DNA from: an uncultured delta proteobacterium
Lineage (GTDB): Bacteria > Desulfobacterota > Desulfobaccia > Desulfobaccales > 0-14-0-80-60-11
Direction: 5' to 3'
DNA: 64,000 nt
Assembly (NCBI GenBank): GCA_963747645.1
Contig: CAVVFW010000003.1
Coordinates: 2,764-66,763 of the forward strand
Shown here: positions 14,665 through 36,037 of the stretch, piece after piece
Position numbering within the stretch: position 1 is the stretch's first letter
Layout of the letters: every line of letters starts with the position of its first letter
The notes under the pieces: model-generated
The model's input: the letters and a program-made list of their open reading frames with translations, nothing else
Databases searched by the model: none
Told to the model about the DNA's origin: nothing
Position numbers and translations under genes: made by a program

Positions 14665-15909
14665 ATGTCTGAATTCGAGGAATCTTCAGGGAGGCAAGCG
14701 GTCGCCAGTTCGTCTGGGGCCGGGGCGCACGCCCGGGCTCTGACCGATTGGGAAACTTTAGGAGGCAAGGTGGTCACCAAGCCTTTTCTGGTCCTGGCCG
14801 CCTTTGCCCTGATCGGCGTCATCCTCATGATCTACCGATATGTCTTCGGCCTGGGAGCTGTCACTAACCTGAGCGACGGCTATCCCTGGGGCCTCTGGAT
14901 CACCTACGATGTCCTGGTGGGCACTGCCCTGGGTTGCGGCGGCTACGCAGTGGCCATCCTGGTCTATGCCTTAAACCGCTGGCGTTACCACCCCGTGGTA
15001 CGTTCCGCAATCCTCACCAGCGTCTTCGGCTACACCCTGGCGGGCCTGGCCATTTTCCTGGACATCGGGCGTTACTGGAACGGCTATCGGCTCTTCTTGC
15101 CCTGGACAGTCAATTTTAACTCCGTCCTGGTGGAAGTGGCCCTGTGTATTGCCGCTTATGTGCTGGTGCTGTGGATCGAACTGCTGCCCAGCGTCCTGGA
15201 AGGGTACCCCCAAAACTCCAAGGCCGTGGCCTGGCATGATCGCCTGGACCGCTGGCTGCCGGTCATCGCCGCCGTGGGCATTCTGCTGCCCACTATGCAC
15301 CAGTCTTCCCTGGGGACGTTGATGATCCTTGCCGGCTATAAGTTATCGCCTCTCTGGCAAACCCCGCTGCTGCCCTTCTTTTTCCTGCTCTCGGCCATTG
15401 CCATGGGCTTTGCCGTGACGGTCTTCGAGTCCATTCTCTCTTCCCTGGCCTTCAAGCGGCCCTTTGAGACCCCCATGTTAGCCCGGATCTCCGTAGGCAT
15501 GGTCTGGCTCATCGTCGTCTTCCTGGCCGTCCGCTTCGCCGATCTTCTCTTCCGGGGCGCCCCGTCCTTCAACAGCGGTTTCGAGAGCCGCATGTTCCTC
15601 CTGGAAACCATCTTATTCCTGGTGCCGGTTCTGCTGTTATTCATCCCCGAGCCGCGACGCAGCCTCCGCTGGCTGTTCCTGACTTCGGCCTCCATGCTCC
15701 TGGCCGGTTCTCTCTATCGCTTCAACGTCTTTCTCATCGGTTACAGCCCCGGGCCCGGTTGGCGTTATTTCCCGGCCGTCCCGGAAATTATGATTACGCT
15801 GGGCATCGTGGCCATCGAACTTATGGCCTATCTCTATTTTTTGAAAAGATTCCCGGTACTCCATCGCGCCCACTCCAACCTTGCCTTAAGGAGATCTGAC
15901 CATGGCTAA
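14665..15909 (+). CDS. hybB: NrfD/PsrC-family integral membrane subunit of the hydrogenase
   Basis: 414-aa polytopic membrane protein in the hybB position between hybA and hybC. Confidence 0.8.
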
Positions 15910-17602
15910 AAGAATTGTCATCGACCCCATAACCAGGATCGAGGGGCATCTGCGCATAGAATGCGAAGTTGACGGCGGCAAAGTGACCAAGGCCTGGTCC
16001 TCGGGCCAGATGTGGCGCGGCATCGAGGTCATCCTCAAGGGCCGGGACCCCCGGGATGCTCCCACTTTCTGCCAACGAATCTGCGGGGTCTGAACTACGG
16101 TACACGCCTTGGCCTCGGCGAGGTCAATTGAAAACGCCCTGAAGATGGAAGTGCCCTTAAACGGCCAGTATATCCGGAACCTCATGATGGCGGCGCACGC
16201 CACGCACGACCACATCGTGCATTTTTACATCCTCTCGGCCCTGGACTGGGTGGACATCACCTCGGCCCTGAAGGCTGACCCCAAAAAAGCGGCGCAGTTG
16301 GCCGACAGCCTCTCTTCCTGGCCCCGGAACGACTACAAGGAGCTCAAAACGGTCCAGGACAAGCTCAAGACCATCGTGGCCTCGGGCCAATTGGGGATCT
16401 TCGCCAACGGCTATTGGGGCCATCCGGCCATGAAACTGCCCCCGGAGGTCAACCTTCTGGCCGTCACCCATTACCTCCAGGCCCTGGAGTACCAGCGTAA
16501 GGCCAACATGATCGTCTCCATCCTGGGGAGTAAGACCCCCCATGTCCAAAACATCGTGCCGGGCGGCGTCTCCACCGCGATTAACCTGGATTCCCCCTCG
16601 GCCCTTAACATGGAGCGGCTCTATTATATTAAGACCCTCATCGACGAGGTGGGCGACTTCGTCAAGAACGCCTACCTGGTGGACGTCTGCGCCGTGGGCG
16701 CCCTCTATGCCGACTGGACCAAGTACGGGGCCGGGGTTACCAACTACCTGTCGGCCCCTGACATGCCCATGGACCCCAAGGGCACAGTCTTCAACCTCCC
16801 CGGCGGGTATATCCAAAATGGCGACCTGACAACCTTCAAGCCCATCAGTTCTTACCACGACGACTACTTCCGGGAAGGCGTCAGGGAGTCCATCAAGCAC
16901 TCCTGGTACGATGGCGACTGGACCAAGCATCCCTGGGATGAGAGCACCGATCCCAAGTACACCGGCTTTAAGGATGACGGCAAGTATTCCTGGGTCAAGG
17001 CCCCGTCTTTCTATGACCAGCCGGCCCAGGTGGGCCCCCTGGCCAACGTCCTCTGCATGTACGCTGCCGGCCACGCCCCTACCAAAAAGTATGTCGGCCA
17101 GGCCCTGGCCACCGTCAGCAAATTGGCGGGCGCCCAGGTGGGGCCGGAGGCCCTCCACTCCACCATCGGCCGCCACGCCGCCCGGGCCATCCGCTGCGCC
17201 GTGCTCTACGATGAACTGAACACCCAATGGCAGGCCCTGGTGAACAACATCGCCAAGGGCGATCTCACCATCTGCACCCCTTACCCCATGAAGGCGGGGG
17301 AAAGTCGGGGCTTCGGGTTCCACGAGGCGCCCCGGGGCATCCTGTCCCATTGGGTGGTCATCGAAGACAACAAGATCAAAAACTACCAGGCCGTAGTGCC
17401 TTCCACCTGGAACGCCGGGCCCCGGAACCAGAGCGACGCCCCGGGTCCTTACGAGGCCTCCCTGGTCGGCAATCCGGTGGTGGACCCGGAAAAGCCCCTG
17501 GAGGTGATACGCACCGTTCACTCCTTCGACCCCTGCCTGGCCTGCGCCATTCACCTCACCGACGCCGCCGGCCGACCCATCATCCAGGTTAAGGCCTTGT
17601 GA
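15902..17602 (+). CDS. hybC: [NiFe] hydrogenase large subunit interrupted by one in-frame TGA (16091..16093) at the second Cys of RxCGxC. Candidate selenocysteine codon, or a nonsense mutation.
   Basis: ORFs 15902..16093 and 16109..17602 share one frame. Readthrough gives QRICGV[TGA]TTVHALAS. The C-terminal motif is DPCLACAIH. Strong resemblance to E. coli HybC throughout. Confidence 0.85.
16109..16127 (+). promoter_or_regulatory. stem-loop in the position expected for a bacterial SECIS element
   Basis: TTGGCCT-CGGCG-AGGTCAA, 7 bp including one G-U pair, begins 15 nt after the TGA. The loop G residues lie about 26 nt from the U of UGA. Confidence 0.35.
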
Positions 17603-21592: not shown

Positions 21593-21646
21593 ATTATGAG
21601 ATGGCCCCCGGGCTCTTTGCCCATTAAGACGGGAGTTCTGGCAATT

Positions 21647-23035
21647 CTATTTGATCGATTCGATTTGCCTGGAGTACGTGATGCCAAAGCGCTTCATGCG
21701 ATTCCACACGGTTACCCGGCAAATCCCCAGGATCTCGGCGGCTACCGATTGGTTGCCCTTGGCCCGGGCCAGGGCATCGATGAGCTGTCGTTTGCCGATT
21801 TCCTGTTTGGTGGGGAGAGCGACATCCACATCATCGTTTGATTTTTCCTCTTTGAGAATATCGGGCGGCAGGTGATGGGGCTGAATTAAAGGCTCCTGGC
21901 AGGTCACGAAGGCATATTCGAAGGCGCTCTTGAGCTCCCGGACATTGCCGGGCCAGGGGTATCTGATGAGAACCTCCAGCGCCGGATTGCTTATTCCTTC
22001 GATGCTTTTACCACTCTTAATGCGCAATTTCCGAAAGAAGGATTCGGCCAGCAGAGGTATGTCTTCGACCCGCTCCCGGAGTGGCGGCATTTGGATCGGG
22101 ATCACGTTGATCCGAAAGTAGAGGTCTTTTCTGAAGGCCCCGGTTTTCACCAGGCTGGAGAGGTTTTTGTTCGTGGCCGAGATGATCCGCACGTCTACCG
22201 GTATGGACTTGTTGTCGCCCACCCGTTCGATGACTTTTTCTTCCAGCACCCGGAGGAGCTTCACCTGAGTGGAAAGGGGCAGATCCCCGATCTCGTCGAG
22301 AAAGATGTCGCCGCCCTGAGCCATTTCAAATCTTCCGGCCCGGCCCTTGTAAGCGCCGGTATAGGCTCCCTTGACATGTCCGAAGAGTTCGCTCTCCAGG
22401 AGAGATTCCGTCAGGGCGGCGCAGTTCACCTTGACATAGGCGCTCTTCTTCCGGTCCCCCAGTTGATGGATGGCCCGGGCCGCAAGTTCCTTGCCGGTGC
22501 CGCTTTCGCCTAGGATGATCACCGGGGCGTCCGATTGGGCGGCATTTTCGATGAGAGAAAACACCTGCTGCATGGGTGCGGAAGCGCCGATCAAGCCCTG
22601 AAAGGCGTCTTCAGATCGCAGGTGTCGGCGAATCGCGGCAATCTGTTTGTCTTTGGCCACGATCTCCGTGATATCGGTGATCGTTTCGACGGCGCCGATC
22701 ACTCTGCCTTTGCCGTCATGGAGTTGGGCGGCATTTTTGAGCACCGGCACGTAGGTCCCATCTTTCCGCATAATCGTGCAGCGGCGCATATTCATAGCCC
22801 CGGTTTTAAAGAGGAGACACCAGTGGCTGCCACACTTTTCCCGAGCCAGGTTAAAGATGCTGCAGTTCAATATCGAACATTTCTGACCGATGAGTTCCTC
22901 GTGAGTATAATCGGTTATCGTCTCCAGGGCCCGGTTCACTGACAGGATTGAGCCGCTGGTGTCCACGACCATGATGCCATCCCGGATAGTATTGACGATA
23001 GTTTTCCAATACCGATCCATTTCCTCTTCAAACAT
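21647..23035 (-). CDS. sigma-54-dependent transcriptional activator with an N-terminal Cys-rich PAS domain
   Basis: PAS domain (IMVVDTSGSILSVNRALETI), Cys motif C-x4-C-x10-C-x4-C, Walker A GESGTGKE, GAYTGA, and HTH AAEILGICRVTVWNRMKRFGI. Confidence 0.92.
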   Translation of the reverse strand: MFEEEMDRYWKTIVNTIRDGIMVVDTSGSILSVNRALETITDYTHEELIGQKCSILNCSIFNLAREKCGSHWCLLFKTGAMNMRRCTIMRKDGTYVPVLKNAAQLHDGKGRVIGAVETITDITEIVAKDKQIAAIRRHLRSEDAFQGLIGASAPMQQVFSLIENAAQSDAPVIILGESGTGKELAARAIHQLGDRKKSAYVKVNCAALTESLLESELFGHVKGAYTGAYKGRAGRFEMAQGGDIFLDEIGDLPLSTQVKLLRVLEEKVIERVGDNKSIPVDVRIISATNKNLSSLVKTGAFRKDLYFRINVIPIQMPPLRERVEDIPLLAESFFRKLRIKSGKSIEGISNPALEVLIRYPWPGNVRELKSAFEYAFVTCQEPLIQPHHLPPDILKEEKSNDDVDVALPTKQEIGKRQLIDALARAKGNQSVAAEILGICRVTVWNRMKRFGITYSRQIESIK

Positions 23036-23220
23036 ATCTCCCCTGCCTTCCTTTCAAAATCTTAGCACTTTGAACCCAATATCACAAGCCTGCCGTTTAA
23101 TTTTGCAACAGTTGTTTAAAAACGCTTCTTAGCATATTAAACACCAGATTTCACAAACATTTCCAGGATAAAACTGTAATTTATATAAATATCAGGTAGA
23201 TACACGGTATTTGCCTCGGT

Positions 23221-23235
23221 TGGCACCAAACTTGC
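23221..23235 (+). promoter_or_regulatory. sigma-54 (-24/-12) promoter
   Basis: TGGCAC-caaac-TTGC, an exact match to TGGCAC-N5-TTGC. It is divergent from the activator gene and upstream of the TusA-like/metF/hdrA cluster. Confidence 0.85.
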
Positions 23236-23268
23236 GGGTTAAGCGGGGTGGGGAAAGGGAGGAAGGCG

Positions 23269-23508
23269 TTGAAGCCCAAAGCCGATTATGTCCTCGATTT
23301 CAGCCAAACCATCACACCCTTTGCTCTGCTCAAAATGACGCAGGTGATGCGGGAGATGAATAGGGATGAGGTTTTGGAGATCATCACGCGAGATGCGGTT
23401 GCCCGGACGGATGTCTTTAAGTTGATACCCACGGCGTCCTGCGAAGTGATTGATATGGAGTTTAACAAGGACGCTGATTTCTTTCGCATTCGGGTGAAGC
23501 GAATCTGA
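23269..23508 (+). CDS. TusA/SirA-fold protein lacking the CPxP cysteine
   Basis: LDFSQTITPFALLK aligns with LDxxGxxCPxPxxxxK, but Thr replaces Cys. TTG 23269 follows GGGAGG. The listed start at 23248 would leave no leader after the promoter. Confidence 0.55.
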   Translation: MKPKADYVLDFSQTITPFALLKMTQVMREMNRDEVLEIITRDAVARTDVFKLIPTASCEVIDMEFNKDADFFRIRVKRI

Positions 23509-23545
23509 AGCCTGGGTAGGCGATGACCAAAGGAAGAGGGAGCCT

Positions 23546-24418
23546 ATGAGTTTTCAAAAACGATTGTTGTCCGGCGAATTCGTGGTCCTGGCAGAGATGA
23601 ATACCCCCAAAGGGGTCGACACCTCGCAGCTGGTGTCCCAGGCGCGCCGGCTCAAGGGGCGGGTTGACGCGGTCACCGTGCCGGATATGGACAACGGCAT
23701 CATGCGGATGAGCGCTTTAGCCGGGGGCGTGCTGCTGAATCAGCAGGGGATTGAGCCGATCATCCATGTCTACTGCCGGGACCGGAACCGGATGGCCCTG
23801 CAGGGAGATGTATTGGCGGCTTATGGCCTGGGCATCCAAAATCTGATGGTGGTGGGCAGCGAAGACCTCGCCTATTGCGATCATCAGGATATGAAGACCG
23901 TCAACGACCTCGATGAGCTGGGCCTGATCGGCGCCATCCGTTCCCTGGAGCGGGGGGTGGATTTGGCCGGCCTGGAACTCAACGGCGCGCCGAGTTTCAT
24001 TGTGGGCTGCACTATGCAGCAATGGGCGGATGAGCCGGCCCTGGACCGCGAGCTTGAGGCCGCCAGCAAGAAGGTGGAAGCAGGGGCGGGGTTTGTGGTT
24101 ACCCCTGCGGTCTATGACCTGGACCTTTTCAGATCGTTCAGGGAACGGGCCCAGGGCTTGGGAGTGCCGGTGATCGCCACCGTATTCTTGCTGAAATCCG
24201 TGGGCTCAGCCCGATACATCGCCAACACCGAACCGGCTTCGGGCCTGTCGGAGGATTTGATCCGGCGGATTCGCAAGGCTTCCGACCGGGAAAATGAATG
24301 CCTTCGGGTGGCCGGGGAGACTGCCGCGGCTTTAAAGGAACTGGCGCAGGGAGTGCGGTTTGTCACCCTGGGTTGGGAGCACCGCCTCCCCGCCATTTTA
24401 GACTATGCGGGCCTTTGA
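23546..24418 (+). CDS. methylenetetrahydrofolate reductase family paralog (MetF-like 1)
   Basis: TIM-barrel MTHFR pattern (VPDMDNG, IIHVYCRDRNR, GIQNLMVVGSED, GAGFVVTPAVYD). Divergent from the second copy. Confidence 0.7.
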   Translation: MSFQKRLLSGEFVVLAEMNTPKGVDTSQLVSQARRLKGRVDAVTVPDMDNGIMRMSALAGGVLLNQQGIEPIIHVYCRDRNRMALQGDVLAAYGLGIQNLMVVGSEDLAYCDHQDMKTVNDLDELGLIGAIRSLERGVDLAGLELNGAPSFIVGCTMQQWADEPALDRELEAASKKVEAGAGFVVTPAVYDLDLFRSFRERAQGLGVPVIATVFLLKSVGSARYIANTEPASGLSEDLIRRIRKASDRENECLRVAGETAAALKELAQGVRFVTLGWEHRLPAILDYAGL

Positions 24419-24482
24419 TACCGGATACGCCCTCAGGCTTCCGGAGCTGCATTGAAATCTTAAAGAGAAGATTAGGATAGCC

Positions 24483-27400
24483 ATGCCAGAGAAAAAGAAA
24501 TTCCAATCCAGCAATAAGGTGCTTGTGGTCGGTGGGGGCATGGGCGGCATCAGGGCCGCCCTGGACCTGGCGGAAACGGGCCGGGATGTCGTGCTGATCG
24601 ACAAAGACTTTGCCATCGGCGGTCTCATGACCCAGCTCGACCGGACCTTTCCCACCAATAATTGCGATCTCTGCACCCTGTCACCCCATCTCTCGGAAAG
24701 CGGCCGCAAACTGCACATCCAGCTCATGACGATGACCCAGTTGAGCGACCTTTCCGGAGAGGCAGGCCGTTTCACCGCGACCCTCACAACGAAGCCCCGC
24801 TATATTAATTTGCTGAAATGCACGGGGTGCGGTGAGTGCGCCCGCAAATTCCCCGATTCGGTGCGCTTCACGCCAGGCCTCGACCATCGGGCGCCCACCT
24901 GTATGCGCTATCCCCAGGGGACCCCGTATGCCTATTCAATCATTAAGGATGAACGCACCGACTTTGAGGCCCTGGCCAAATGCTGCCCGGCTAATGCGAT
25001 CCTGCCCGATGATCCCAAAAAAGAGCAGGAAATCGAGATCGGGTCCATCATCCTGGCGCCCGGGGCGGACGTGTTCAATCCGCAGATCCTGGACACCTAC
25101 GGCTACGGCGTCAATCCGAACGTGGTCACCAGCCTGGAATATGAGCGGATTCTCTCGGCGTCCGGGCCGACCAAGGGAGAGCTCGTGCGGCCCTCGGACG
25201 GCAATCGGCCCAAAAAGATCGCCTGGATTCAGTGCGTCGGGTCCCGGGGGATTCAAGTAGGCTCGGTCTCTTACTGCTCCAGCGCCTGCTGCATGTTTGC
25301 TCTGAAGGAAGCGATTGTCACCCGGGAGCGCTTCTATGACGATATGGAAACGACCCTGTTCTACATGGACATGCGCACTTCGGGCAAAGATTACGAGCTC
25401 TACCTCCAGCGGGCCATCAACGATTACGGCATTCGCCTGGTGCGGGCCCGCCCCCATACCGTCGAACCGATCATCGCAGCCGGGACCCCGACGGGAGACC
25501 TCCAAATCAGATACCCCTCGGAGGCTGAAAACTCCTTTCTGACGGAAGTCTTCGACATGGTGGTCCTGGCGACCGGTTTCCGGGTGTCGCCGGAAGTCAA
25601 GGATTTGTCCGACAAGATCGGCATCGACCTCAATGAGCACAATTTCGCCCGGACGGGAAGCTTCGATCCGGTGGCCACCTCCAAGCCTGGCATCTATGTC
25701 TGCGGCATGTTCCAAGGCCCCAAGGACATCCCCGAAACCATGGTCCAGGCCAGTGCCGCGGCTGCCAGTGCCGCCCGGGACCTGACGCCATTGCGAGTGG
25801 TGGCGGAAGCCAAAGAAGTGCTGTTGCCGGAGCGCAGCGTTGCCGGCGAAGAGCCGAGGATCGGGGTCTTTGTGTGCGACTGCGGTCTCAATATCGGCGG
25901 GGTGGTTAATGTGGAGGAAGTTGCCGCGAGTATGGCCGACCTGCCGCAGGTGGTCGTGTCCGAGACCATCGGCCACGGCTGCAGCAGCGCTTCCTTGGAG
26001 CATATCCGAAGCAGCATTCTGGCGAAAAATCTTAACCGGGTGGTCGTGGGGGCCTGCTCGCCCAGGACGCATGAAAATCTTTTTCAGGAAACCGTGCGCA
26101 AGGCGGGCTTGAACAAGTACCTGGTGGAAATCGCCAACCTGAGGGACCAGGATACCTGGGTCCATCCGAACCTCCCCGGCGCTGCCGCCGAAAAGGCCAA
26201 CGAACTCGTGCGCATGGCGGTGTCGGCGGTGCGTCTCGCCCGGCCGCTGGCCGACCTGACCCTGCCGATGAACAAAGATGTCCTGGTGGTGGGGGGCGGT
26301 ATTGCCGGGATGACGGCGGCGCTGAGGCTCGCGGATATGGGCTATAAAGTCCACCTGGTGGAACGCTCCAAGGAACTCGGCGGGGTGGCGAAGAAGATTC
26401 GCAGGACCCTCGAGGGCGAAGACGTGCAGGCCCACGTCGCCGATCTCGTCAAGAGAACGGAAGGGCACGAGCGTATCCAGGTGTGGAAGCAATCCATGGT
26501 GGTGGACCACTCGGGCATGGCCGGCATGTTCAGGACCGGCATCCAGGTGGGGCCCCAGATGTTCTACCGGGAACTCCGCCACGGCATCACGATCCTGGCG
26601 ACCGGGGCGCTCCCCAACCGTCCCCAGGAGTATCTCTTGGGACGGCATCAGGCCGTGACCACGCAGCTCGATCTCGGGGTCCTGCTGGCCGACAACCCCG
26701 AGGCTGCGAAGGCCTGGCAGAACGTGGCCATGATTCAATGCGTCGGGTCACGCGTTCCCGAAAATCCCAACTGCTCCCGGGTGTGCTGCCAGGGGGCCGT
26801 TAAAAACGCCCTGCATATCCTTGAACTGAATCCCGAAGCCAAGATTTTCGTGCTTTATCGCGACATGCGCACACCGGGCTTTGAGGAAGATTATTACCGC
26901 AAAGCGAGGGAACAGGGGGTCATTTTTGTCACCTATAAACTTGAGGACAAGCCGGTGGTCGCCGCCGATGGGACGGGGGTAAGCGTTAGTTTTACCGACC
27001 CGATTTTAGGACGTGAAGTAAAAATTCCGGCAGACTGTCTGGCTCTCAGCACCGGCTTGGTGGCCGATGAGGAGTCGTCGGAAGATCTGGGCATGATCTT
27101 CCGCCTGCCCAGGACCCCGGATGGGTATTTTCTCGAGGACCACGTCAAACTCAGGCCCATCGATCTGCCGATCCCGGGGTTCTTTGTGGCCGGGACCGCG
27201 CATGCGCCCAAGACCATCCGGGAGACCATCGCCCAGGCGCAGGCCGCGGCGGGACGGGCCCAGACTTTCCTGGCCCGGGACAGCATCAACCTGGGGGCGC
27301 TGGTGGCTCAGGTAGAAGGGGAGCTGTGCGCCGCCTGCCTCATCTGCGTGCGGGCCTGCCCCTTCGGGGTGCCGTTCATCAATGAGGAAGGGCACTCGGA

Positions 27401-27533
27401 GATCGACCCGGCCAAGTGCCACGGCTGCGGCGTCTGTGCCTCGGAATGTCCCGCCAAGGCGATTCAGCTCATGCAGTATGAGGACGATCATATCATGGCG
27501 AAGTTAGACGGACTTTTAGAAGGGATAATGTAA
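24483..27533 (+). CDS. hdrA: HdrA-like flavoprotein with two tandem HdrA modules and a C-terminal 2x[4Fe-4S] ferredoxin domain
   Basis: VLVVGGGMGG and VLVVGGGIAG dinucleotide folds. QCVGSR..C..CC occurs twice. C-terminal CAACLICVRACP and CHGCGVCASECP. Confidence 0.88.
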   Translation: MPEKKKFQSSNKVLVVGGGMGGIRAALDLAETGRDVVLIDKDFAIGGLMTQLDRTFPTNNCDLCTLSPHLSESGRKLHIQLMTMTQLSDLSGEAGRFTATLTTKPRYINLLKCTGCGECARKFPDSVRFTPGLDHRAPTCMRYPQGTPYAYSIIKDERTDFEALAKCCPANAILPDDPKKEQEIEIGSIILAPGADVFNPQILDTYGYGVNPNVVTSLEYERILSASGPTKGELVRPSDGNRPKKIAWIQCVGSRGIQVGSVSYCSSACCMFALKEAIVTRERFYDDMETTLFYMDMRTSGKDYELYLQRAINDYGIRLVRARPHTVEPIIAAGTPTGDLQIRYPSEAENSFLTEVFDMVVLATGFRVSPEVKDLSDKIGIDLNEHNFARTGSFDPVATSKPGIYVCGMFQGPKDIPETMVQASAAAASAARDLTPLRVVAEAKEVLLPERSVAGEEPRIGVFVCDCGLNIGGVVNVEEVAASMADLPQVVVSETIGHGCSSASLEHIRSSILAKNLNRVVVGACSPRTHENLFQETVRKAGLNKYLVEIANLRDQDTWVHPNLPGAAAEKANELVRMAVSAVRLARPLADLTLPMNKDVLVVGGGIAGMTAALRLADMGYKVHLVERSKELGGVAKKIRRTLEGEDVQAHVADLVKRTEGHERIQVWKQSMVVDHSGMAGMFRTGIQVGPQMFYRELRHGITILATGALPNRPQEYLLGRHQAVTTQLDLGVLLADNPEAAKAWQNVAMIQCVGSRVPENPNCSRVCCQGAVKNALHILELNPEAKIFVLYRDMRTPGFEEDYYRKAREQGVIFVTYKLEDKPVVAADGTGVSVSFTDPILGREVKIPADCLALSTGLVADEESSEDLGMIFRLPRTPDGYFLEDHVKLRPIDLPIPGFFVAGTAHAPKTIRETIAQAQAAAGRAQTFLARDSINLGALVAQVEGELCAACLICVRACPFGVPFINEEGHSEIDPAKCHGCGVCASECPAKAIQLMQYEDDHIMAKLDGLLEGIM

Positions 27534-27973
27534 TGGAGAATTTCGAACCGGTAATTGTCGCTTTCTGCTGTCACTACTGCGCTTACACGGCTGCGGACAT
27601 GGCCGGCAGCATGAGGCTGCGCTATCCTCCCAACGTGAAAATCATCCGGGTGCCCTGCTTGGGGAAGGTAGATGCGATTCACATCATGAAATCCCTGGAG
27701 AAGGGCGCGGACGGGGTATACGTGGCCGGCTGTCTGGAGGGGGATTGCCATTTCAAGAGTGGCAACATCAGGGCAGCCCATCGGGTGGATTACCTCAAGA
27801 AGCTCCTCGATGAGATCGGCATCGGCGCCGAGCGCGTCGAGATGTTCGCCATGTCCGCGGGTATGGGCGAGCGCTTTGCGCAAACCGCCACCGATTTCAC
27901 CGAGAAGATTCGGAAACTTGGACCCAATCCCGCCAAGGTGGCGCGGCATGAAGATCAGCGGGCTGCAGGTTGA
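27533..27973 (+). CDS. mvhD: MvhD-like (methyl-viologen-reducing hydrogenase delta subunit family) [2Fe-2S] protein
   Basis: Contains IVAFCCHYCAY, VPCLGKVD and AGCLEGDCHF. The ATG overlaps the hdrA stop codon. Confidence 0.88.
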   Translation: MENFEPVIVAFCCHYCAYTAADMAGSMRLRYPPNVKIIRVPCLGKVDAIHIMKSLEKGADGVYVAGCLEGDCHFKSGNIRAAHRVDYLKKLLDEIGIGAERVEMFAMSAGMGERFAQTATDFTEKIRKLGPNPAKVARHEDQRAAG

Positions 27974-28001
27974 ATCGATAAGAACAGGAGACTGAGCAAA
28001 G

Positions 28002-28670
28002 ATGATTACTGCTGAACGAAAACCTATGGAAGAGCTTATCCAATGCGTTAAGCCGTATCGCAGCATCCTGCTGGCCGGCTGTAATGAGTGCGTTACGGTG
28101 TGCGCCGCGGGAGGCCGGAAGGAGGTCGGGGTCCTGGCCTCGGCGCTCAAGATGCATTTTATGAAAGCAGGCAAACCTCTCGAAATCAGAGAAATCACCC
28201 TCGAGAGGCAATGTGATCCCGAGTATATAGAGGAGTTGGCGCCGCTCATCGACCAGGTGGACGCGGTGCTCTCCATGGCCTGCGGCTGCGGCGTGCAGGA
28301 AGTTGCCCGACGCTTCCATGATAAGCCGGTCTTCCCGGTGGTGAACACCAAGTTTATGGGAGCCTCCGAGCATCAGGGGGTCTGGGCTGAGCGCTGCCAG
28401 GGCTGCGGCGACTGCGTCCTGGGGTCCACCGGCGGCGTCTGCCCGGTGGCCCGGTGCTCGAAGCAACTGTTTAACGGTCCGTGCGGCGGCTCCACCAACG
28501 GCAAGTGCGAGGTTGACCCGAATATGGACTGCGCCTGGCAGCTCATTTGGGACCGCCTCAAAGCCCTGGGAATGACGGAAAGGTACGAAGAGAACCTGCC
28601 GGCCAAAGATTGGCGTCCGGCTGGGGGCGCGGGGCCGCGGAAAATCATCAGAGAGGATATGGCGCTATGA
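28002..28670 (+). CDS. metV: MetV-type Cys-rich subunit of acetogen-type methylene-THF reductase
   Basis: Many Cys (GCNECVTVCAAG, CGCGVQE, CQGCGDCVLGSTGGVCPVARC, CGGSTNGKCE). Overlaps the metF start (ATGA). Confidence 0.75.
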   Translation: MITAERKPMEELIQCVKPYRSILLAGCNECVTVCAAGGRKEVGVLASALKMHFMKAGKPLEIREITLERQCDPEYIEELAPLIDQVDAVLSMACGCGVQEVARRFHDKPVFPVVNTKFMGASEHQGVWAERCQGCGDCVLGSTGGVCPVARCSKQLFNGPCGGSTNGKCEVDPNMDCAWQLIWDRLKALGMTERYEENLPAKDWRPAGGAGPRKIIREDMAL

Positions 28671-29629
28671 AAACGGCAAGCACTCTGGAAAAAATACTGG
28701 CATCAGGCGATCTGGCAGTCACCTCCGAGTGCGGGCCGCCCCGGGGCACTTCAGCCCAGAAGGTCCGGGAAAAGGCCGAAATGCTTAGGGGTTTTGTGGA
28801 CGGGGTCAATGTCACCGACAACCAGACCGCCATGGTCAGAATGTCCAGCCTGGCCGCCTGTATCATCATCAAGCAGATGGGGCTCAACCCCATCCTCCAA
28901 ATGGTGACCCGGGACCGCAACCGGTTGGCGATGCAGAGCGATATCCTGGGGGCCTATGCCCATGGCATCGATACCATGCTCTGCCTGTCCGGCGACCATC
29001 CCCACTTCGGCGACCACCCCATGGCCGCCTCGGTGCACGACATCGACTCGATCCAGATGATCCAGATGGTAAAGGAGATGCGGGATGAAGGGCTGTTCCA
29101 GGGCGGGGATAAGATCGACGAGCCTCCGCAAATGTTTATCGGCGCCGCGGCCAATCCTTTCGCCGACCCTTTTGAACTGCGGGTTGCCCGCCTGGCGAAG
29201 AAGGTGAAGGCCGGGGTCGATTTCATCCAGACCCAGTGCATCTACAACCTCGATAAATTTGAAAAGTGGATGGCAGGGGTCCGGGATCGGGGCCTGCATG
29301 AGCAAGTCTACATCATGGCCGGCATCACCCCTATGAAGTCGGTGGGTATGGCGCGCTACATGAAAAATAAGGTGCCGGGGATGGATGTGCCGGATGAGGT
29401 GGTGAAACGCATGGGGGGGGTGCCCAAGGACAAGCAGGCTGACGAGGGCATCAAAATCTGCCTGGAGACCATCGAGCGTCTTAAAGGAGTGGAAGGTGTC
29501 CGGGGATTTCACATCATGGCGATTGAGTGGGAGCAGAAGGTCGGCGAGATCATGGAACGGGCGGGACTTCTGCCTAGACCTAACAGTGTAAATTCGGCGG
29601 TTCAAAACGTGCGAGGAGGCAACTCATGA
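28667..29629 (+). CDS. metF: methylenetetrahydrofolate reductase (acetogen/MetFV type)
   Basis: Contains VNVTDNQ, ILQMVTRDRNR, DTMLCLSGDHP, GVDFIQTQCIYN and GFHIMAI. Start taken at ATG 28667. Confidence 0.85.
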   Translation: MKTASTLEKILASGDLAVTSECGPPRGTSAQKVREKAEMLRGFVDGVNVTDNQTAMVRMSSLAACIIIKQMGLNPILQMVTRDRNRLAMQSDILGAYAHGIDTMLCLSGDHPHFGDHPMAASVHDIDSIQMIQMVKEMRDEGLFQGGDKIDEPPQMFIGAAANPFADPFELRVARLAKKVKAGVDFIQTQCIYNLDKFEKWMAGVRDRGLHEQVYIMAGITPMKSVGMARYMKNKVPGMDVPDEVVKRMGGVPKDKQADEGIKICLETIERLKGVEGVRGFHIMAIEWEQKVGEIMERAGLLPRPNSVNSAVQNVRGGNS

Positions 29630-30015
29630 GCGACAAAGATCTGATTTTGGTAGTGGACGATGATCCGGATCTGGTGGATATGGTAGCCACAAAGCTTGAG
29701 GCCAATAACTACAGGACCGCCAAGGCTTACGATGGCGTCCAGGCCTGGGAGAAGATCAGGCTGGAGAAGCCCACCATGGTGATCATGGACGTCATGATGC
29801 CCAACAAGGACGGCTATGTGACCTGCGAAGAGATCAAGAAGGACCCTGATTATAAAGATATTCCAGTGGTTCTGCTCACCGCAGTCGTGGATAACCTGCC
29901 GACAACCAGCTATACCCACCACGAAGGCAGAACCACTCCGGCGGACGATTTCATTCCCAAGCCCGTAGACCTGGATAAGCTCATGGATATCGTCCAGGAA
30001 AATCTCGCGCGCTGA
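29626..30015 (+). CDS. single-domain response regulator (REC only)
   Basis: Contains ILVVDDDPD, DVMMPNKDG and FIPKP. The ATG overlaps the metF stop codon. Confidence 0.85.
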   Translation: MSDKDLILVVDDDPDLVDMVATKLEANNYRTAKAYDGVQAWEKIRLEKPTMVIMDVMMPNKDGYVTCEEIKKDPDYKDIPVVLLTAVVDNLPTTSYTHHEGRTTPADDFIPKPVDLDKLMDIVQENLAR

Positions 30016-30018
30016 CGA

Positions 30019-30066
30019 GGTTCAAAGTTCAAAGTTCAAGGTTCTTTGAGCTTTGAACTTTGAACC
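30019..30066. repeat. 48-nt hairpin built from GTTCAAA heptamers
   Basis: GGTTCAAAGTTCAAAG (30019..30034) is the exact reverse complement of CTTTGAACTTTGAACC (30051..30066). A related heptamer string occurs at 2253..2270. Confidence 0.85.
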
Positions 30067-31639
30067 GGTGGCCAAAGATGATGGGTTTTTCTATGGTCAA
30101 AGGAGCCGATGGAATTACGACAGAGTTCGATTGGCGGTCGAGGGTATTCGATTCACTTTCTCTGCCCGCCCTGATTTTGGAGCCGAACCGGATTGTTCTC
30201 GATGCTAACAAAGCCTTTTTGAAGAAGTTTGACATTACGTAAAGATGAGATCATCGGCCAAACCTGCCATGAATTTTATTACCAGTCTGAAGAGCCTTGT
30301 CCTTATGAAACCTGTCCGCTTCCCAAGGTGCTGGCTGAAAAAGCCGGACAGACGATTCTTAGACGCGTCAAGATCTCCGGTAGAACAGAAAAGTGGGAGG
30401 ACCGGATCTTCTCGCCCATTCTGGATAATGCCGGTGAGGTCAGATACATCATCGAGAAAATCCGGGATGTCACGCATGTCAAGAGGCTGGAAAGAGAGCT
30501 TTCCGGGGTTAAGGTGTTCATGGAAAAGTTTGTCCAGAGCTCGATGAGCGCCATCTTTGCCGTAGACCGGCGTGGAAAGATCCTGGTCATGAACCCGGCC
30601 GCAGAAGAGCTTACCGGCTATACCTTCCAGGAGGCCAGAAGCAAAATTACGGTCATAGACCTTTATCCGCCAGGACAGGCGAAAGAAATCATGCGCAAAC
30701 TCAGGAGTGAAGCCTTCGGAGGAAAAGGGAAGCTGCCTTGCAGCCAGACCACCCTGGTAAACGCGCAGGGGGAAGAGATTCCGGTGGAGCTGACCGCGGC
30801 GATCATTTATGAGGGTGGCAAAGAAGTGGCCACCATGGGTATCTTTAATGACCTCAGGGAGAAACTTGCCCAGGAGGAGAAGATTAAAGAGGTGCTTGAT
30901 GAGAGCAGCCCAGGCGGAGAAAATGGCCTCACTCGGTCAACTCGCGGCCGGCGTGGCCCATGAGATCAACAATCCCCTGACCGGCATCCTCCTGTATGGC
31001 GGCCTGCTTCTGGAAGACCTGCCAAAGGACGATCCTAAATATCAGGATATGCAGTCTATCATCGAAGACGCCAATCAATGCCGCAACATTGTCAAGAGCC
31101 TTCTGGCTTACAGCCGGCAGACAAGCGCCAACAAAGAGACCCTGGACTTCAATGACCTGGTCGAACAGAGCCTGAGCCTCATTCGGGATCAGAGCCTGTT
31201 CATCAATATAGAGGTGGTTAAAGAGCTATCGGACGAGGAAATGCTGATTAGAGTGGACCGGAGCCAGCTCAACCAGGTGATTATCAACCTGGTCATCAAC
31301 GCCGTTGATGCCATGGAGAGAAAAGGTACCCTGACCCTCCGGACCTACTGCGATAAGGGGAAGAGGAAAGGGGCCGGGAAAAAAGCCGCCGCAGGTTTCG
31401 CCTACCTGGAAGTCTCCGATACCGGATGCGGCATATCCGAGGATAATCTTCCCCGGATATTTGACCCATTCTTTACGACCAAAGACCTGGGAAAAGGCAC
31501 CGGTTTAGGCCTGAGCACCGTCTATGGGATTGTCCAGGAGAATGGTGGCACTATCTGGGTGAAAGAAACCAGCCAGGCAGGAACCACCTTCATACTGGAA
31601 CTTCCCCTTTGTCGAGGTGCAGATGAACATAAGCTCTAA
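30060..31639 (+). pseudogene. PAS/PAS sensor histidine kinase, two frame breaks (about 30240 and about 30898)
   Basis: Three consecutive frames: ...KAFLKKFDIT | KDEIIGQTCHEF...EKIKEVL | MRAAQAEKMASLGQLAAGVAHEINNP...HATPase (DTGCGI, GTGLGLS). Confidence 0.75.
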
Positions 31640-31680
31640 CAATCTATCTGCTATGCACCCAGGGGAAGGGGTCTGAAATC

Positions 31681-33201
31681 GTGGTCGAGAAAATGGCCGC
31701 AATCAATCGTTCCGCCCCCACCATTCTGGTTATCGACGATGAGGAGCGGGTGCGCGAAGGCTGCCGGAAGGTCCTGGTCCGGGATGGGTATGAAGTGACG
31801 ATTGCCGAATCCGGGGAAGTTGGGCTGAAAATGATCGAGCGCCGCCATTATGACATCATCCTCCTGGACCTGATGATGCCCAGTCTTTCCGGGTTCGATG
31901 TGCTGGCCCACGTCAAGACGCTGCACCCTGACACGGTAATCATCGTGATCAGCGGGTATGCTACGGTGGAAAACTCCATCGAGGCCATGAAAAGAGGGGC
32001 TTTCGATTTTATCCCCAAACCCTTCTCACCCGAACAACTGCGGGTCCTTACCAAAAAGGCCATCGAATACACCCGGACCATGCAGGACATTGCCGACGAG
32101 AAGTCGCGGATGCGCGTGCTCATCAATCTTCTCACGGACGGCGTCATGGCCACGGATAGCCAAAAGCGCGTCGTGCTCGCCAACCCGGCATTTCTGAGAA
32201 TGGCGGGATGCCGGGAAGTCCAGGCCGTCGGGCGCACAGTCGGTGAAATCATCCACGATGAACAGCTTGAACAGATGATTGACCGGGCGCTGGCCATATC
32301 TGGAGACGCTCTCGTGGAACTGACCCAAGAGATCTGCTGCGAAGCCGAGCCGGATCAGTCGGGTCCGATCCTGAATGCCCGCTGCATTCCCTATATCGAC
32401 CGGGCCGGCCGGAACGTGGGCACCATCACCGTACTGCACGACATCACTACTTTGAAGCGCATGGACCAGATCAAATCGGAATTCGTCTCCATGGTCTCCC
32501 ACGAAATTCGGAGTCCGTTGAATTCGGTCCTGGCCCAGATCAAGGTGATCCTCGACGGCCTGGCCGGCGAGGTTACCGCAAGGCAACAAGAAATTCTGGG
32601 CCGGGCCTCGGAAAAGGTCAAGAGCCTGGTGTGTCTTTCGTCCGAACTCCTGGACCTGGCCCGTATTGAGTCCGGCCTGATCCGCCAGGAGAGGGAGCAG
32701 TTCAACCTGGCCGACATCCTCAAGGATCAGGTGGTCTTCCATGGCGCCACGGCTCAGGCCAAGGGGATCTCCCTGGAGCTGGAGCCTCTCCCCAAGCTTG
32801 CTCCCGTGTTTGCCGCCCGGCGCAACATGGAAGAGGTCTTCTCCAATCTCATCAGCAACGCCATCAACTATACGCCCGCAGGTGGAAAAGTGGTCGTTGC
32901 CGCCGCCATGGAAAGCGGCTACCTCAGGGCGAGTGTGTCCGATAACGGTATCGGTATGGCCCCAGAAGACCTGGGCCACATTTTTAATCGTTTCTACCGG
33001 ATAAAAAACGACCAGACGAGATTTATCATCGGTACCGGTCTGGGACTCGCCATCGTCAAAAGCATCGTGGAAGCCCACAACGGCTTTATCCGCGTGGAAA
33101 GCGAGCCTGACCGCGGCAGTACATTTCAGGTCTACATCCCCTGCCCGGATCATGACCACGGACTGCGGCCGGATCGGGTGAAGAATTCTAAAAAGGTTTA
33201 A
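31681..33201 (+). CDS. hybrid REC-PAS-HisKA-HATPase sensor kinase
   Basis: Contains ILVIDDEE..DLMMP, a PAS domain, the H-box SMVSHEIRSPLN, DNGIGM and GTGLGLAIV. Confidence 0.88.
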   Translation: MVEKMAAINRSAPTILVIDDEERVREGCRKVLVRDGYEVTIAESGEVGLKMIERRHYDIILLDLMMPSLSGFDVLAHVKTLHPDTVIIVISGYATVENSIEAMKRGAFDFIPKPFSPEQLRVLTKKAIEYTRTMQDIADEKSRMRVLINLLTDGVMATDSQKRVVLANPAFLRMAGCREVQAVGRTVGEIIHDEQLEQMIDRALAISGDALVELTQEICCEAEPDQSGPILNARCIPYIDRAGRNVGTITVLHDITTLKRMDQIKSEFVSMVSHEIRSPLNSVLAQIKVILDGLAGEVTARQQEILGRASEKVKSLVCLSSELLDLARIESGLIRQEREQFNLADILKDQVVFHGATAQAKGISLELEPLPKLAPVFAARRNMEEVFSNLISNAINYTPAGGKVVVAAAMESGYLRASVSDNGIGMAPEDLGHIFNRFYRIKNDQTRFIIGTGLGLAIVKSIVEAHNGFIRVESEPDRGSTFQVYIPCPDHDHGLRPDRVKNSKKV

Positions 33202-33217
33202 AAGGAAGGAGAATATT

Positions 33218-34537
33218 ATGCAGGCTGCCGTGACACCTCAAAAACTACCTGAGCCCATCAAAGAGGCCCTGGCAAAATTCAACCTGAATCTGTGCATGAC
33301 CTGCGGGACCTGCACCAGCGGCTGCCCCGTCACGGGAACGCCGGGGATGGAAGGGTGGGATACCAGAAAGGTCCTGCGGATGCTGCACTTCGGCATGGTT
33401 GATGAGGTGGTCGACTCGAAGTTTCCCTGGGTGTGCACCGGCTGCGGCCGCTGCGCCCACGCCTGCCCGATGAATCTCGATATCCCCTACATCATGCTGC
33501 ACATGAAGTCCTTGCGCCCCAGGGACAAAGTGCCGGGCATTCTCCACAAGGGCGCCGAACACTGCTTTAACACCGGCAATAACATGGCGATCCCCTTGGA
33601 GGATTACCTGTTTCTCATGTCCGACATGGGCAAAGAGATGGCCGACGAAGACTGCCCCGGCTTCTATGTGCCCCTCGATAAAGAGGGGGCCGACACGCTC
33701 TTCTACCCGAATTCCAAGGAAGTCTTTGCCGACAATGAGGATATGAAATGGTGGTGGAAAATTTTTTACGCCGCCCGGGAAAACTGGACCATTCCCTCGG
33801 AAAACTGGGAGTCGGTGGACTGGGGTCTGTTTACCGGGAACTATGAGTACATCAAGACCTTTGCCCAGCGCAAGATCGACTTCATGAAGGAGCACCACGT
33901 CAAACAGATGATCATGCCGGATTGCGGCGGGGGCTCCTACGGCTGCCGCGTGGGCATGAAGTTGTGTGTCAAAGAGAGCCCGGAAAATGAGATCAACTAT
34001 ATATATCTCTACGAATATCTCGTTAACCTGATTAAATCGGGCCGGATCAAGCTCGATAAAAGCGTCAACGCCGGAAAGATCTTCACCTGGCATGACTCCT
34101 GTAAACACGGCCGGGAGCTCGAGCGTCATTTCGGCAAGGGTTTCTATGAGGAGCCCCGCTGGATTATCCAACAATGCGCTGACAACTTTGTCGATATGGA
34201 GCCGAACCGGGCCAACGGCCACTGCTGCGGCGCCGGCGGCGGCATGTGGCCGGGCCCCTATGAAGCGGAATCCGCCTGGCACGGAAAAGCCAAATACGAA
34301 TCCATCAAGAACAGCGGCGCCAATGTCCTGGTGGTCGCCTGCTCCAACTGCCACGACCAGCTCATGAAACGCGTTCCCAAATTCAATCCCGAGTATAAAT
34401 ATGAGGTGAAGTACCTTTGGGAACTGGTGGCCGATAGCCTTATCCTAGAGCCGTGGACCGAAGAGGAAATCGCGCGGGGTGAGGCCGAAGGCGCAGCCCA
34501 GTGGGAGCGGTTTGGCGTTGAGATGGATGAGGAATAG
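33218..34537 (+). CDS. HdrD/DsrK-like Fe-S oxidoreductase (2x[4Fe-4S] plus two CCG domains)
   Basis: Contains CMTCGTCTSGCP, CTGCGRCAHACP, PDCGGGSYGC, WHDSCKHGRE, HCCGAGGG and VACSNCHDQL. Confidence 0.8.
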   Translation: MQAAVTPQKLPEPIKEALAKFNLNLCMTCGTCTSGCPVTGTPGMEGWDTRKVLRMLHFGMVDEVVDSKFPWVCTGCGRCAHACPMNLDIPYIMLHMKSLRPRDKVPGILHKGAEHCFNTGNNMAIPLEDYLFLMSDMGKEMADEDCPGFYVPLDKEGADTLFYPNSKEVFADNEDMKWWWKIFYAARENWTIPSENWESVDWGLFTGNYEYIKTFAQRKIDFMKEHHVKQMIMPDCGGGSYGCRVGMKLCVKESPENEINYIYLYEYLVNLIKSGRIKLDKSVNAGKIFTWHDSCKHGRELERHFGKGFYEEPRWIIQQCADNFVDMEPNRANGHCCGAGGGMWPGPYEAESAWHGKAKYESIKNSGANVLVVACSNCHDQLMKRVPKFNPEYKYEVKYLWELVADSLILEPWTEEEIARGEAEGAAQWERFGVEMDEE

Positions 34538-35101
34538 GCTCGAGAGGATTAGCGAAAACCGGCCCGGCGCCGGCAAGCACCAAGGCATGAGACTGTTTTG
34601 ACACCGCGTTAACCGGCCGGGCAAAGGGGGTCTTCGGCCAAAAATCGCCACAGTAATTCTCGACAATTTCATTATACCCAATCACGCGGTGCGGATAGTA
34701 GGGAGCTTTTATAAGCATAGCCGGCGCGTGGTTGGGTGTTGCTCAACCTAAAATTTGGCAATCTCAAAGTCTCCATTATCCAATCTTTATTGCCAGATAC
34801 CCTGCCAAAACCTTCCTTTTCGTCGAGCCAGCATAAATTCCAGATATGATTCGCATATCATCCAAGAGCTCCTGTGGGGGGAACGATTTCAGGTGTCCGC
34901 GTTTGAAAGAAGGCGGATTTTGGGCTGGGAAAGCAAAGGCCCTTCAGGGCGAAAAGAGTCGATATGGACTGTATATGGAAGGTTTTTGGCTCGTTGATAA
35001 CTATCGGATCATAGCAGTAAGCCGCATCCTCATATTCATTAAATTTCATTCAAGGAATAACAACTTGATGGGTTGTTATCTTTTCCAGAAATGAGAAAGG
35101 T

Positions 35102-36037
35102 TCACGGTGCCAGTTTTCCTTCCTCTGCCAAATGACTGAGCAGCAAGTGGAAGTAAACGAGCCCGCCAAACGGTTGCCAGCCGGCCAGCAATCGCCCGAC
35201 CTCCTGATAATCTAGCGGCTCCGGTAATGCCAACCAGGCTTGCAGCCGCCGGCGGGCACCCACATCGTCTCCCGGGAAGATCCGCCACCTACCCAAGCCC
35301 CGCAGCAATACGTATTCCGCGCTCCAGCGGCCGATTCCCCGTAAGGCCTCCAGGTATTTGACGGCCTGCCCGTCGTCCAGGAGCTCAAGCTTGTCGAGGT
35401 CTATGAGGCCCTGGGCGACCCCCTGGGCCAGGTCCACCAGGGTGCGCCCCTTGCTGCGGCTGAACCCCAGGCGGCGGAGGTTCTCCGGGTCTGCCCCCGC
35501 CAGGTCTACAGGCCGCGGAAAGGCAGGGATGACCTCGCCAGCCTCCAGAAAACCAAGACCATACGAGGCTGCCAGCCGGTTGAGCAAATAAATGCCGACG
35601 GTGAGACTGATCTGCTGGCAGGCGACGGCATTGACCATGGCCTCGAAAACGCTGGGAAAACGAGGTGGCTTGACCCCCCGCCAGGGCTGGATCAACTCCC
35701 GCAGTCGCGGGCTTTGTCTGGCCAGACGGTAAAGGCCCGCTATATCAGCGTCCAAGCCGAGCATTTGCGTCAGCAAAGCCTTGAGGGCCGGAACTGCCCT
35801 CGTTTCATCCATGGTTTCGCCCCTGATCTTCACTTGCAGCCTGGGGGCATCCACCGGCCCGGTCTGGACGACGGTGGCGAGCACCGGTTCTCCTTGAACC
35901 ACCAGTACTCTCCGATAGGTCCGGCCGTCCCAGCTGTCCACCAAGTTGTGGGAGCGCCGCCGCAGCACCCAAACGGTCAGATCCAGGCGGAAAGGGGAAC
36001 TTGGAGTCAGCTCGAAGGAGATGTTGGTCAAGAACAA
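35102..36037 (-). CDS. alkA: DNA-3-methyladenine glycosylase II (AlkA, HhH-GPD family)
   Basis: Contains FEAMVNAVACQQIS, GIGRWSAEYVLLRGLG and FPGDDVGARR. Confidence 0.8.
   Translation of the reverse strand: MFLTNISFELTPSSPFRLDLTVWVLRRRSHNLVDSWDGRTYRRVLVVQGEPVLATVVQTGPVDAPRLQVKIRGETMDETRAVPALKALLTQMLGLDADIAGLYRLARQSPRLRELIQPWRGVKPPRFPSVFEAMVNAVACQQISLTVGIYLLNRLAASYGLGFLEAGEVIPAFPRPVDLAGADPENLRRLGFSRSKGRTLVDLAQGVAQGLIDLDKLELLDDGQAVKYLEALRGIGRWSAEYVLLRGLGRWRIFPGDDVGARRRLQAWLALPEPLDYQEVGRLLAGWQPFGGLVYFHLLLSHLAEEGKLAP

Follow-up and report, generated by a model that had tools for sequence, protein, structure and literature searches.

Comparative genomics of sulfate reducers reportedly places hdrA and mvhD genes beside metF, the gene for the catalytic subunit of methylene-tetrahydrofolate (methylene-THF) reductase. 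The described systems that come closest to the cluster analyzed below are the Hdr-type (type IV) reductases HdrCBA-MvhD-MetVF of Sporomusa ovata and Moorella thermoacetica (PMC9430772, and Mock et al. 2014 cited therein). In S. ovata, the Glu/Lys signature of HdrA is found only in an extra N-terminal TrxR domain, and the Moorella HdrA contains a GltD insertion (PMC9430772); a fused HdrA has also been noted for Moorella (PMC9012536). MetFV-HdrABC-MvhD has been described in acetogens and marine Chloroflexi, and delta-proteobacterial Met homologs have been mentioned with hdrABC assumed elsewhere (PMC6085437, PMC5736913, PMC10553843). A fused HdrA is also part of class II benzoyl-CoA reductase, where the first flavin of the BamE/BamF/BamD trio bifurcates and BamD passes the high-potential electron to electron-transferring flavoprotein (ETF) (preprint 10.64898/2026.04.10.717634). 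Here we analyze a methylene-THF reductase gene cluster from an uncultured delta proteobacterium of the Desulfobaccales (assembly GCA_963747645.1), which lies in a stretch of 64,000 nucleotides (nt) of contig CAVVFW010000003.1 (positions 2,764 to 66,763, forward strand), in the following referred to as the window.

We consider it probable that positions 21598-34711 of the window form one co-inherited, predicted sigma-54-dependent unit for a Desulfobacterota-type variant of the Hdr-type methylene-THF reductase of the Wood-Ljungdahl pathway. Gene calls were based on an open reading frame listing and on Pfam and NCBIfam domain scans of the window proteins, and led to the following features:

21647..23035, minus strand: sigma-54 enhancer-binding activator (PAS, AAA+, HTH_8), divergently transcribed; Pfam Sigma54_activat 236 bits, plus PAS and HTH_8
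23221-23235, plus strand: predicted sigma-54 -24/-12 promoter TGGCAC-N5-TTGC, TGGCACcaaacTTGC, from a consensus motif scan
23269..23508, plus strand: TusA-fold protein without carrier cysteine; PF01206, 33.9 bits; TTG start after the ribosome-binding site GGGAGGAAGG
23546..24418, plus strand: MetF paralog of the methylenetetrahydrofolate reductase (MTHFR) family, 290 residues, here named MetFp1; PF02219 over its full length, 77.1 bits
24483..27533, plus strand: fused double HdrA of two HdrA units, 1016 residues; alignment to 5ODC chain A
27533..27973, plus strand: MvhD-type [2Fe-2S] adaptor, 146 residues; PF02662, 176.5 bits; top NCBIfam match VhuD
28002..28670, plus strand: MetV, small Fe-S subunit of MetVF-type reductases; PF12225, 129 bits
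28667..29629, plus strand: MetF, catalytic methylene-THF reductase subunit, 320 residues; PF02219, 136 bits
29626..30015, plus strand: single-domain response regulator REC; PF00072, 80.9 bits
30019..30066, plus strand: strong stem-loop between the REC and kinase genes; -42.3 kcal/mol, z-score -6.8
about 30079..31639, plus strand: PAS histidine kinase, frameshifted; PAS, HisKA and HATPase_c matches split over two frames (30229-30963 and 30809-31639)
31681..33201, plus strand: REC-PAS-HisKA-HATPase kinase (Pfam), kept after the PAS kinase in related loci
33218..34537, plus strand: soluble HdrD-like Fe-S protein, 439 residues, 2x[4Fe-4S] and CCG domain; PF02754 and Fer4 families

These scans recovered every gene named in the preliminary description of the locus at its place and in the same order. 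The tight packing with overlapping stop and start codons was likewise confirmed: the hdrA stop and the mvhD start overlap by 1 nt (TAATG), and the metV/metF and metF/REC junctions each consist of an ATGA overlap. The HdrD-like gene follows the last kinase gene after a 16-nt gap with a good ribosome-binding site, AAGGAAGGAG, and the next gene past it is AlkA-like and on the minus strand. It also holds that no hdrB or hdrC gene adjoins hdrA, and a separate HdrB or HdrC homolog was found neither in the window cluster nor within about 10 kb in any of the 80 related loci described below. Two entries had to be amended. The PAS kinase is indeed split over two frames, but the break consists of two +1 insertions and the true start lies near 30079; the TusA-like gene is present, but its product lacks the carrier cysteine. 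In the domain scans, no membrane anchor, quinone-binding subunit or other membrane protein was found among the genes of the unit, nor were ETF, methyltransferase or corrinoid-protein genes found within it.

Conservation, boundaries and predicted regulation of the unit

An alignment search for MetFp1 orthologs in species-representative genomes yielded at least 522 loci, the best 80 of which were inspected; since the genomes are related by kinship, locus counts are descriptive here and do not represent statistical tests. The best 80 loci belong to Desulfobaccales, Syntrophobacteraceae, Desulfobacterales, Desulfatiglandales, Desulfocapsaceae and Desulfobulbaceae. Wherever the contig reaches, they keep the order MetFp1-HdrA-MvhD-MetV-MetF-REC-PAS kinase-REC/PAS kinase, so that the comparison of gene neighbourhoods across Desulfobacterota suggested in the preliminary description supports a conserved core. 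As this order recurs in 80/80 inspected loci out of at least 522, it is more than a chance arrangement.

The spread of the module was surveyed in 401 genomes sampled evenly across the phylum, with the MetFp1 family defined by E <=1e-60, a threshold that excludes canonical MetF. The family is present in 119 of these genomes and in 64 of 254 genera, and the type found in the window (>=59% identity) in 14 of the 401. MetFp1 stands together with HdrA or HdrL, MvhD, MetV and MetF in 9 of 12 contexts sampled from this survey; contexts with a plain double HdrA are referred to as type A and those with the HdrL form as type B. Cultured carriers are Desulfoferrobacter suflitae, Desulforhabdus sp. TSK and Desulfatitalea alkaliphila. 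Hence, the module is a widespread Desulfobacterota form that is not peculiar to this genome, and the window holds one ordinary example of it.

The boundaries of the unit were delineated by comparison with the closest relative (G401). Nucleotide similarity of about 92% starts at 21598, 49 nt beyond the activator stop, and ends near 34711, about 170 nt past the stop of the HdrD-like gene, the flanks on either side of 21598-34711 being unrelated. Because of these similarity edges with unrelated flanks, the unit that starts with the activator and ends with the HdrD-like gene moves or is kept as a block. Another relative has a contig that matches the AlkA flank (35102-36037) at 97% identity, but its copy of the cluster reaches only 86%, a mosaic pattern that hints at an exchange of the unit.

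The control of the unit by sigma-54, as proposed in the preliminary description, is predicted from a -24/-12 element and from a divergent activator. Within the window, TGGCACcaaacTTGC is the only match to the sigma-54 consensus with one mismatch that stands upstream of a gene, and in 45 of 58 related loci a -24/-12 motif precedes the TusA-like gene by at most 200 nt. The activator possesses a GAYTGA loop at residue 223 and the Walker A sequence GESGTGK at residue 176, and is encoded upstream in 53 of the 66 loci with room for it; the TusA-like gene is present in 54 of these 66. Ahead of the sister cluster of the same genome, described below, no sigma-54 motif was found. Four cysteines in the PAS domain of the activator (residues 53, 58, 73 and 86) are invariant in 50 orthologs, which suggests a Cys-ligated cofactor or a redox switch, possibly of an NreB-like kind.

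The embedded PAS kinase is one open frame of 526-533 residues in the relatives L004 and L007, against which the two +1 insertions of the window gene were mapped to about 30240 and 30894; an assembly error and real decay of the gene are equally likely causes. The stem-loop at 30019-30066 comprises about 22 paired bases with GTTCAAA-type repeats and has no U-tract directly 3' of it. A palindromic match occurs at the equivalent position after the REC gene in L007, and the structure could act as an attenuator within the operon or as an mRNA stabiliser. Because the promoter, the activator with its four invariant cysteines and the embedded REC and kinase genes occur together, we infer that the operon is regulated. 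The Cys-bearing activator and the embedded REC and kinases would thereby switch it on under particular redox or substrate conditions.

The fused HdrA and the MetF paralog

HdrA aligns to methanogen HdrA (5ODC_A, E 1.5e-159) in three stretches:

HdrA residues 11-365 on 5ODC_A 144-494: TrxR core with inserted ferredoxin domain
HdrA residues 456-634 on 5ODC_A 2-180: N-terminal domain and start of the second TrxR core
HdrA residues 835-1012 on 5ODC_A 471-650: end of the second core and C-terminal 2x[4Fe-4S] domain

The protein thus begins with a first TrxR domain (TrxR1), into which a one-cluster ferredoxin domain is inserted, and continues with the HdrA N-domain, a second TrxR domain (TrxR2) and the C-terminal 2x[4Fe-4S] domain. 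The TrxR1 cluster, with C251, C265, C269 and C270, stands where HdrC or BamD is positioned. E221 and K275 of TrxR1 correspond to E356 and K409 of the methanogen protein, and the C61/C64 pair is present as well. TrxR2 lacks an inserted domain and, when both halves are aligned to each other, carries Gly at the position of the Glu while Lys 774 is kept. Hence, the Glu/Lys bifurcation signature is restricted to the first flavin domain. Across 63 orthologs, 27 cysteines of HdrA do not vary, and neither do E221, K275, the C61/C64 pair and the TrxR2 residues just named.

Comparison with the Hdr-type reductases of S. ovata and Moorella reveals that they share metV-metF behind mvhD and the double HdrA with the window cluster (PMC9430772, PMC9012536), so that the tandem HdrA does not set the latter apart. 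The sole complete Glu/Lys signature lies in an extra N-terminal TrxR domain in S. ovata as in the window, and the GltD/NfnB insertion of the Moorella HdrA is matched by the type B sister cluster of the genome. In contrast to both, the window cluster has no hdrC and hdrB and carries a second MTHFR-family gene in their position; it also adds a lead gene for a Cys-less TusA-like protein, a REC and two PAS kinase genes and the sigma-54 activator. The fused HdrD-like gene is a further difference, found only in some lineages. Judged by its sequence, the cluster is a variant of the known Hdr-type methylene-THF reductase and not a new kind of system.

The available excerpts of the report on Desulfobacterium autotrophicum HRM2 (PMC2702500) describe features likewise found here, namely numerous hdrA/hdrL loci with mvhD behind each of them, HdrD proteins that are soluble and include one selenoprotein, and a Wood-Ljungdahl metF group; a second MetF paralog, embedded two-component genes and sigma-54 control are not described in these excerpts. 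For the second MetF paralog, the embedded two-component genes and the recruitment of HdrD, no description was found in the open literature.

The first MetF-like gene product, MetFp1, belongs to the MTHFR family as the preliminary description had assumed, whereas an origin from an unrelated family does not hold: residues 4-288 match positions 3-286 of the PF02219 profile with 77.1 bits at a cut-off of 24, and a look-up in the ESM Atlas returned 'MTHFR family' only. MetFp1 shares 29-30% identity with the three MetF copies that the genome encodes and 46% with the paralog of the second cluster, and its orthologs remain 62-98% identical across orders. From these comparisons, MetFp1 is a distinct conserved family. 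An N-terminal Glu, E17, is invariant in the ortholog alignment, as are only two cysteines, and in an alignment with human MTHFR, Glu106-Asp107 stands opposite the Asp of the RGD motif. These sites may correspond to the catalytic acids Glu28 and Asp120 of E. coli MTHFR. The closest longer relatives are YitJ-type homocysteine methyltransferase/MTHFR fusions, with 32-41% identity over the MTHFR half; these are the only fusions among the longer homologs, none of which joins MetFp1 to Hdr or Fe-S domains. MetF itself aligns to Thermus MTHFR (3APT/1V93) and keeps the SGD motif.

In a quick maximum-likelihood tree of both paralogs, with support from the Shimodaira-Hasegawa-like approximate likelihood ratio test (SH-aLRT), MetFp1 forms a clade separate from MetF, both groups being parted by one branch (SH-aLRT 88). 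Type A forms a clade in each group (SH-aLRT 99) and type B stands apart (93-97). The same type A/B split in MetFp1 and MetF fits a divergence of whole clusters.

In the TusA-like protein encoded by the lead gene, ITPF replaces CPxP, and the orthologs shown from 58 loci have no conserved Cys; its PF01206 match is just above the cut-off (33.9 vs 28.6).

The HdrD-like protein and possible alternative electron routes

The eight N-terminal cysteines of the HdrD-like protein align to HdrC of 5ODC and thus form a HdrC-like 2x[4Fe-4S] part. The C-terminal CCG motif is complete (C295, C336, C337, C375 and C378), and the first CCG domain is degenerate. The protein scores far below the cut-offs of the equivalog models HmcF (145/750 bits), TmcB (134/735) and DsrK (129/400), and no HdrE- or DsrM-like membrane partner is encoded next to its gene. 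The position of Cys236 is a TGA codon in a paralog of the same genome (C31:59469-60722) and in the form found in Desulfobacterales (L059:8688-9887), where it is presumably read as selenocysteine (Sec).

For the trio of HdrA, MvhD and HdrD-like protein, the closest solved analogue is BamE/BamF/BamD, a likeness drawn from published description. In both, HdrA is a fused dimer whose first TrxR domain holds the bifurcating flavin, with two cysteines close to it; both also include a MvhD-type adaptor and a soluble HdrD-like protein (fused HdrCB) with a complete and an altered non-cubane site. The window trio differs in that its catalytic and input modules are MetVF and MetFp1, with neither BamBC (AOR-type) nor BamGHI (HydABC-type) domains in the twelve genes of the unit, in the short 146-residue form of MvhD, and in K774 of the second flavin domain, where BamE has Gln.

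The preliminary description had proposed the HdrD-like protein as the electron acceptor side of the module, and part of the evidence agrees with this. Its gene lies inside the co-inherited block 21598-34711 shared with the closest relative, and its conservation of 81-95% exceeds that of the kinases (63-66%). In 22 of 66 loci, the gene of a Sec-containing HdrD-like subfamily, 31-35% identical, is placed behind the TusA-like gene and ahead of MetFp1; this is the form carried by Desulfobacterales. Because this different subfamily is inserted upstream of MetFp1, HdrD-like genes have been recruited to the cluster twice and independently. A role of the HdrD-like protein as a partner of the reductase is therefore plausible, but its general use as acceptor side is made less likely by the distribution detailed next. 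In our reading, it is a facultative partner of HdrA-type modules, and this lineage has tied it to the reductase operon.

Several observations weigh against a single unit with a bifurcating reductase and a HdrD-like partner. Among the 24 loci that are covered on both sides, the downstream HdrD-like gene is present in 8 and neither form in 16. HdrD-like orthologs (>=62% identity) occur in 29 of the 401 sampled genomes, of which only 17 hold the MetFp1 family and 12 do not; elsewhere their genes stand beside an ABC transporter, a BadF/BcrA-type ATPase, an MBOAT protein, or other HdrA, MvhD, Fe-S or NAD-binding genes. Three genomes of the same genus are without this cluster type and carry only a form of 47-48% identity. 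The PAS kinase is frameshifted in this assembly, and the stem-loop ahead of it could decouple the kinase and HdrD-like genes from those of the enzyme. The docking of ferredoxin to HdrA is uncertain because the domain inserted into TrxR1 keeps cysteines for one cluster only. Finally, neither NAD(P) nor ferredoxin was co-reduced or co-oxidised by HdrCBA-MvhD-MetVF of S. ovata, and no bifurcation or confurcation by membranes was observed (PMC9430772).

The uneven distribution of the HdrD-like gene, and its orthologs in unrelated contexts, raise the question of whether MetFp1 instead replaces HdrBC. MetFp1 would then dock on HdrA as a second exit or entry point for electrons, the five core genes would be self-contained, and the HdrD-like protein would be a lineage-specific passenger with a more general role. 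We regard this as unlikely, yet keep it in consideration because MetFp1 occupies the usual hdrCB position, exactly where these genes stand in the Moorella and S. ovata operons. Unlike the HdrD-like gene, it is present in 80/80 loci; in the tree it co-diversifies with MetF, and its nearest relatives are the MetV-independent MTHFR domains of the YitJ type. However, two enzymes working on one -200 mV couple cannot alone form both arms of a bifurcation, MetFp1 with its two invariant cysteines has no Fe-S motif to take single electrons from HdrA, and the twofold, independent recruitment of HdrD-like genes would be left aside.

The S. ovata results also bear on whether bifurcation takes place at all. 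Electrons could instead run along a linear chain that might start at a quinol-linked or ferredoxin donor and end at methylene-THF, or go the opposite way, as has been proposed for S. ovata; the double HdrA would then serve only as wire and scaffold. Besides the missing co-reduction in S. ovata (PMC9430772), the reduction of the inserted ferredoxin domain to one cluster and the second flavin domain without the signature Glu are in line with such a chain. We nevertheless consider it quite unlikely, as E221, K275 and the C61/C64 pair of TrxR1 have stayed invariant, the cluster is without a membrane anchor or quinone-binding subunit, and the sister cluster has a NAD(P)H-binding GltD-like insertion that is typical of bifurcating HdrL/Nfn-type modules. 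We retain the bifurcating Hdr-type reductase variant as the preferred reading.

Other reductase loci, proposed mechanism and physiological role

The genome (3.6 Mb, 32 contigs, about 90% complete) encodes CODH/ACS, DsrAB and Fhs, and holds five MTHFR-family genes and 14 MvhD matches. The sister cluster lies on the same contig outside the window (C3:106181-113603; locus L001, 4182-17700) and has the order REC, MetFp1' (46%), HdrL-type HdrA, MvhD', MetV', MetF' (65%), REC and two PAS kinases. Its HdrA contains an inserted NfnB/GltD-like NAD(P)H-binding module, its MvhD' gene has an in-frame TGA, and the kinases are followed by the start of a REC-AAA+ activator gene. A third metV-metF pair stands alone beside fhs, the gene of formate-THF ligase (C4:223978-227801; locus L002), and may encode the housekeeping enzyme of the pathway. 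The window MetF is 61-65% identical to the other two MetF copies. Since genomes with type A clusters carry 4-7 MTHFR genes, the cluster is never the sole reductase.

The preliminary description had also considered that hdrBC might be encoded elsewhere and co-regulated, which would count against a variant module. Genes of hdrBC type do exist (contig C18), but each stands beside its own hdrA/mvhD. This dense Hdr region without MetF (C18:12000-32000; locus L003) comprises HdrA-like/MvhD, HdrC/HdrB-like, HdrL-type HdrA, MvhD, another double HdrA and HdrC/HdrB-like genes, and is one of about ten double-HdrA loci in the genome.

Two further gene sets were noted in the window. A Hyb-type [NiFe] hydrogenase operon (12479-17602) lies 6 kb upstream of the cluster and encodes a small subunit, a 4Fe-4S protein, a NrfD-like membrane protein and a large subunit; it was considered as a partner of the cluster and rejected, since relatives do not keep the two together. 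A copper/silver-type efflux set on the minus strand (48085-56022) encodes an AcrB-family pump, a membrane-fusion protein with three YHS domains and a multicopper-oxidase-like protein.

Because the genome holds two other MetVF systems, the operon of the window would be conditional and not housekeeping. Taken further, the cluster might be used to catabolise methyl groups conditionally, such as those of methoxylated or methylated compounds, or act on a non-folate pterin, and the metVF pair beside fhs would then be the enzyme of the core Wood-Ljungdahl flux. The three MetVF systems, one of them beside fhs, the lack of this cluster type in the three genomes of the same genus, the dedicated sensors and sigma-54 activator, and the flanks that differ among close relatives would all suit such a role. 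Yet the unit has no methyltransferase or corrinoid-protein genes, its MetF is close to the other two copies, and the cluster occurs widely among complete oxidisers that employ the Wood-Ljungdahl pathway, which makes this explanation very unlikely.

For the preferred reading, a Hdr-type reductase variant of the Wood-Ljungdahl pathway, we propose the following mechanism, which beyond gene identity and conserved residues is an inference from the sequence. MetF and MetV would interconvert methyl- and methylene-THF, and MvhD would pass electrons to or from the flavin of TrxR1 in HdrA. This flavin would couple the folate couple at -200 mV to a low-potential and a higher-potential partner, the former being ferredoxin via the one-cluster inserted domain. 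By analogy with BamD and BamE, the higher-potential branch in this lineage would most likely run via the HdrD-like protein; in lineages that lack it, this branch may run via MetFp1 in the HdrCB position.

The suggestion of the preliminary description that this is a variant module beyond the described complexes thus stands with regard to the missing HdrBC and the extra MetF paralog, but has to be qualified in that the double HdrA is as in S. ovata and Moorella and the module is widespread. A more far-reaching and speculative version, to which we give little credence, is that a MetV-independent MTHFR paralog has taken over from HdrBC in Desulfobacterota, aided in some lineages by a HdrD-like protein of the Cys or Sec type. 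One flavin of the fused HdrA would then couple the oxidation of methyl-THF (or the reduction of methylene-THF) to ferredoxin and a soluble high-potential carrier (for example ETF or DsrC).

Of all redox steps in the Wood-Ljungdahl pathway, that of methylene-THF reductase is understood least. Which partners exchange electrons with the enzyme in vivo has yet to be settled for acetogens and has hardly been studied in sulfate reducers, where the pathway runs in reverse. The five-gene module described here, found in about 30% of the sampled Desulfobacterota genomes, is without HdrBC, always carries a second MetF-type flavoprotein and comes with its own sensors. It represents a concrete and testable candidate for the coupling of the methylene-THF reductase step to energy conservation.

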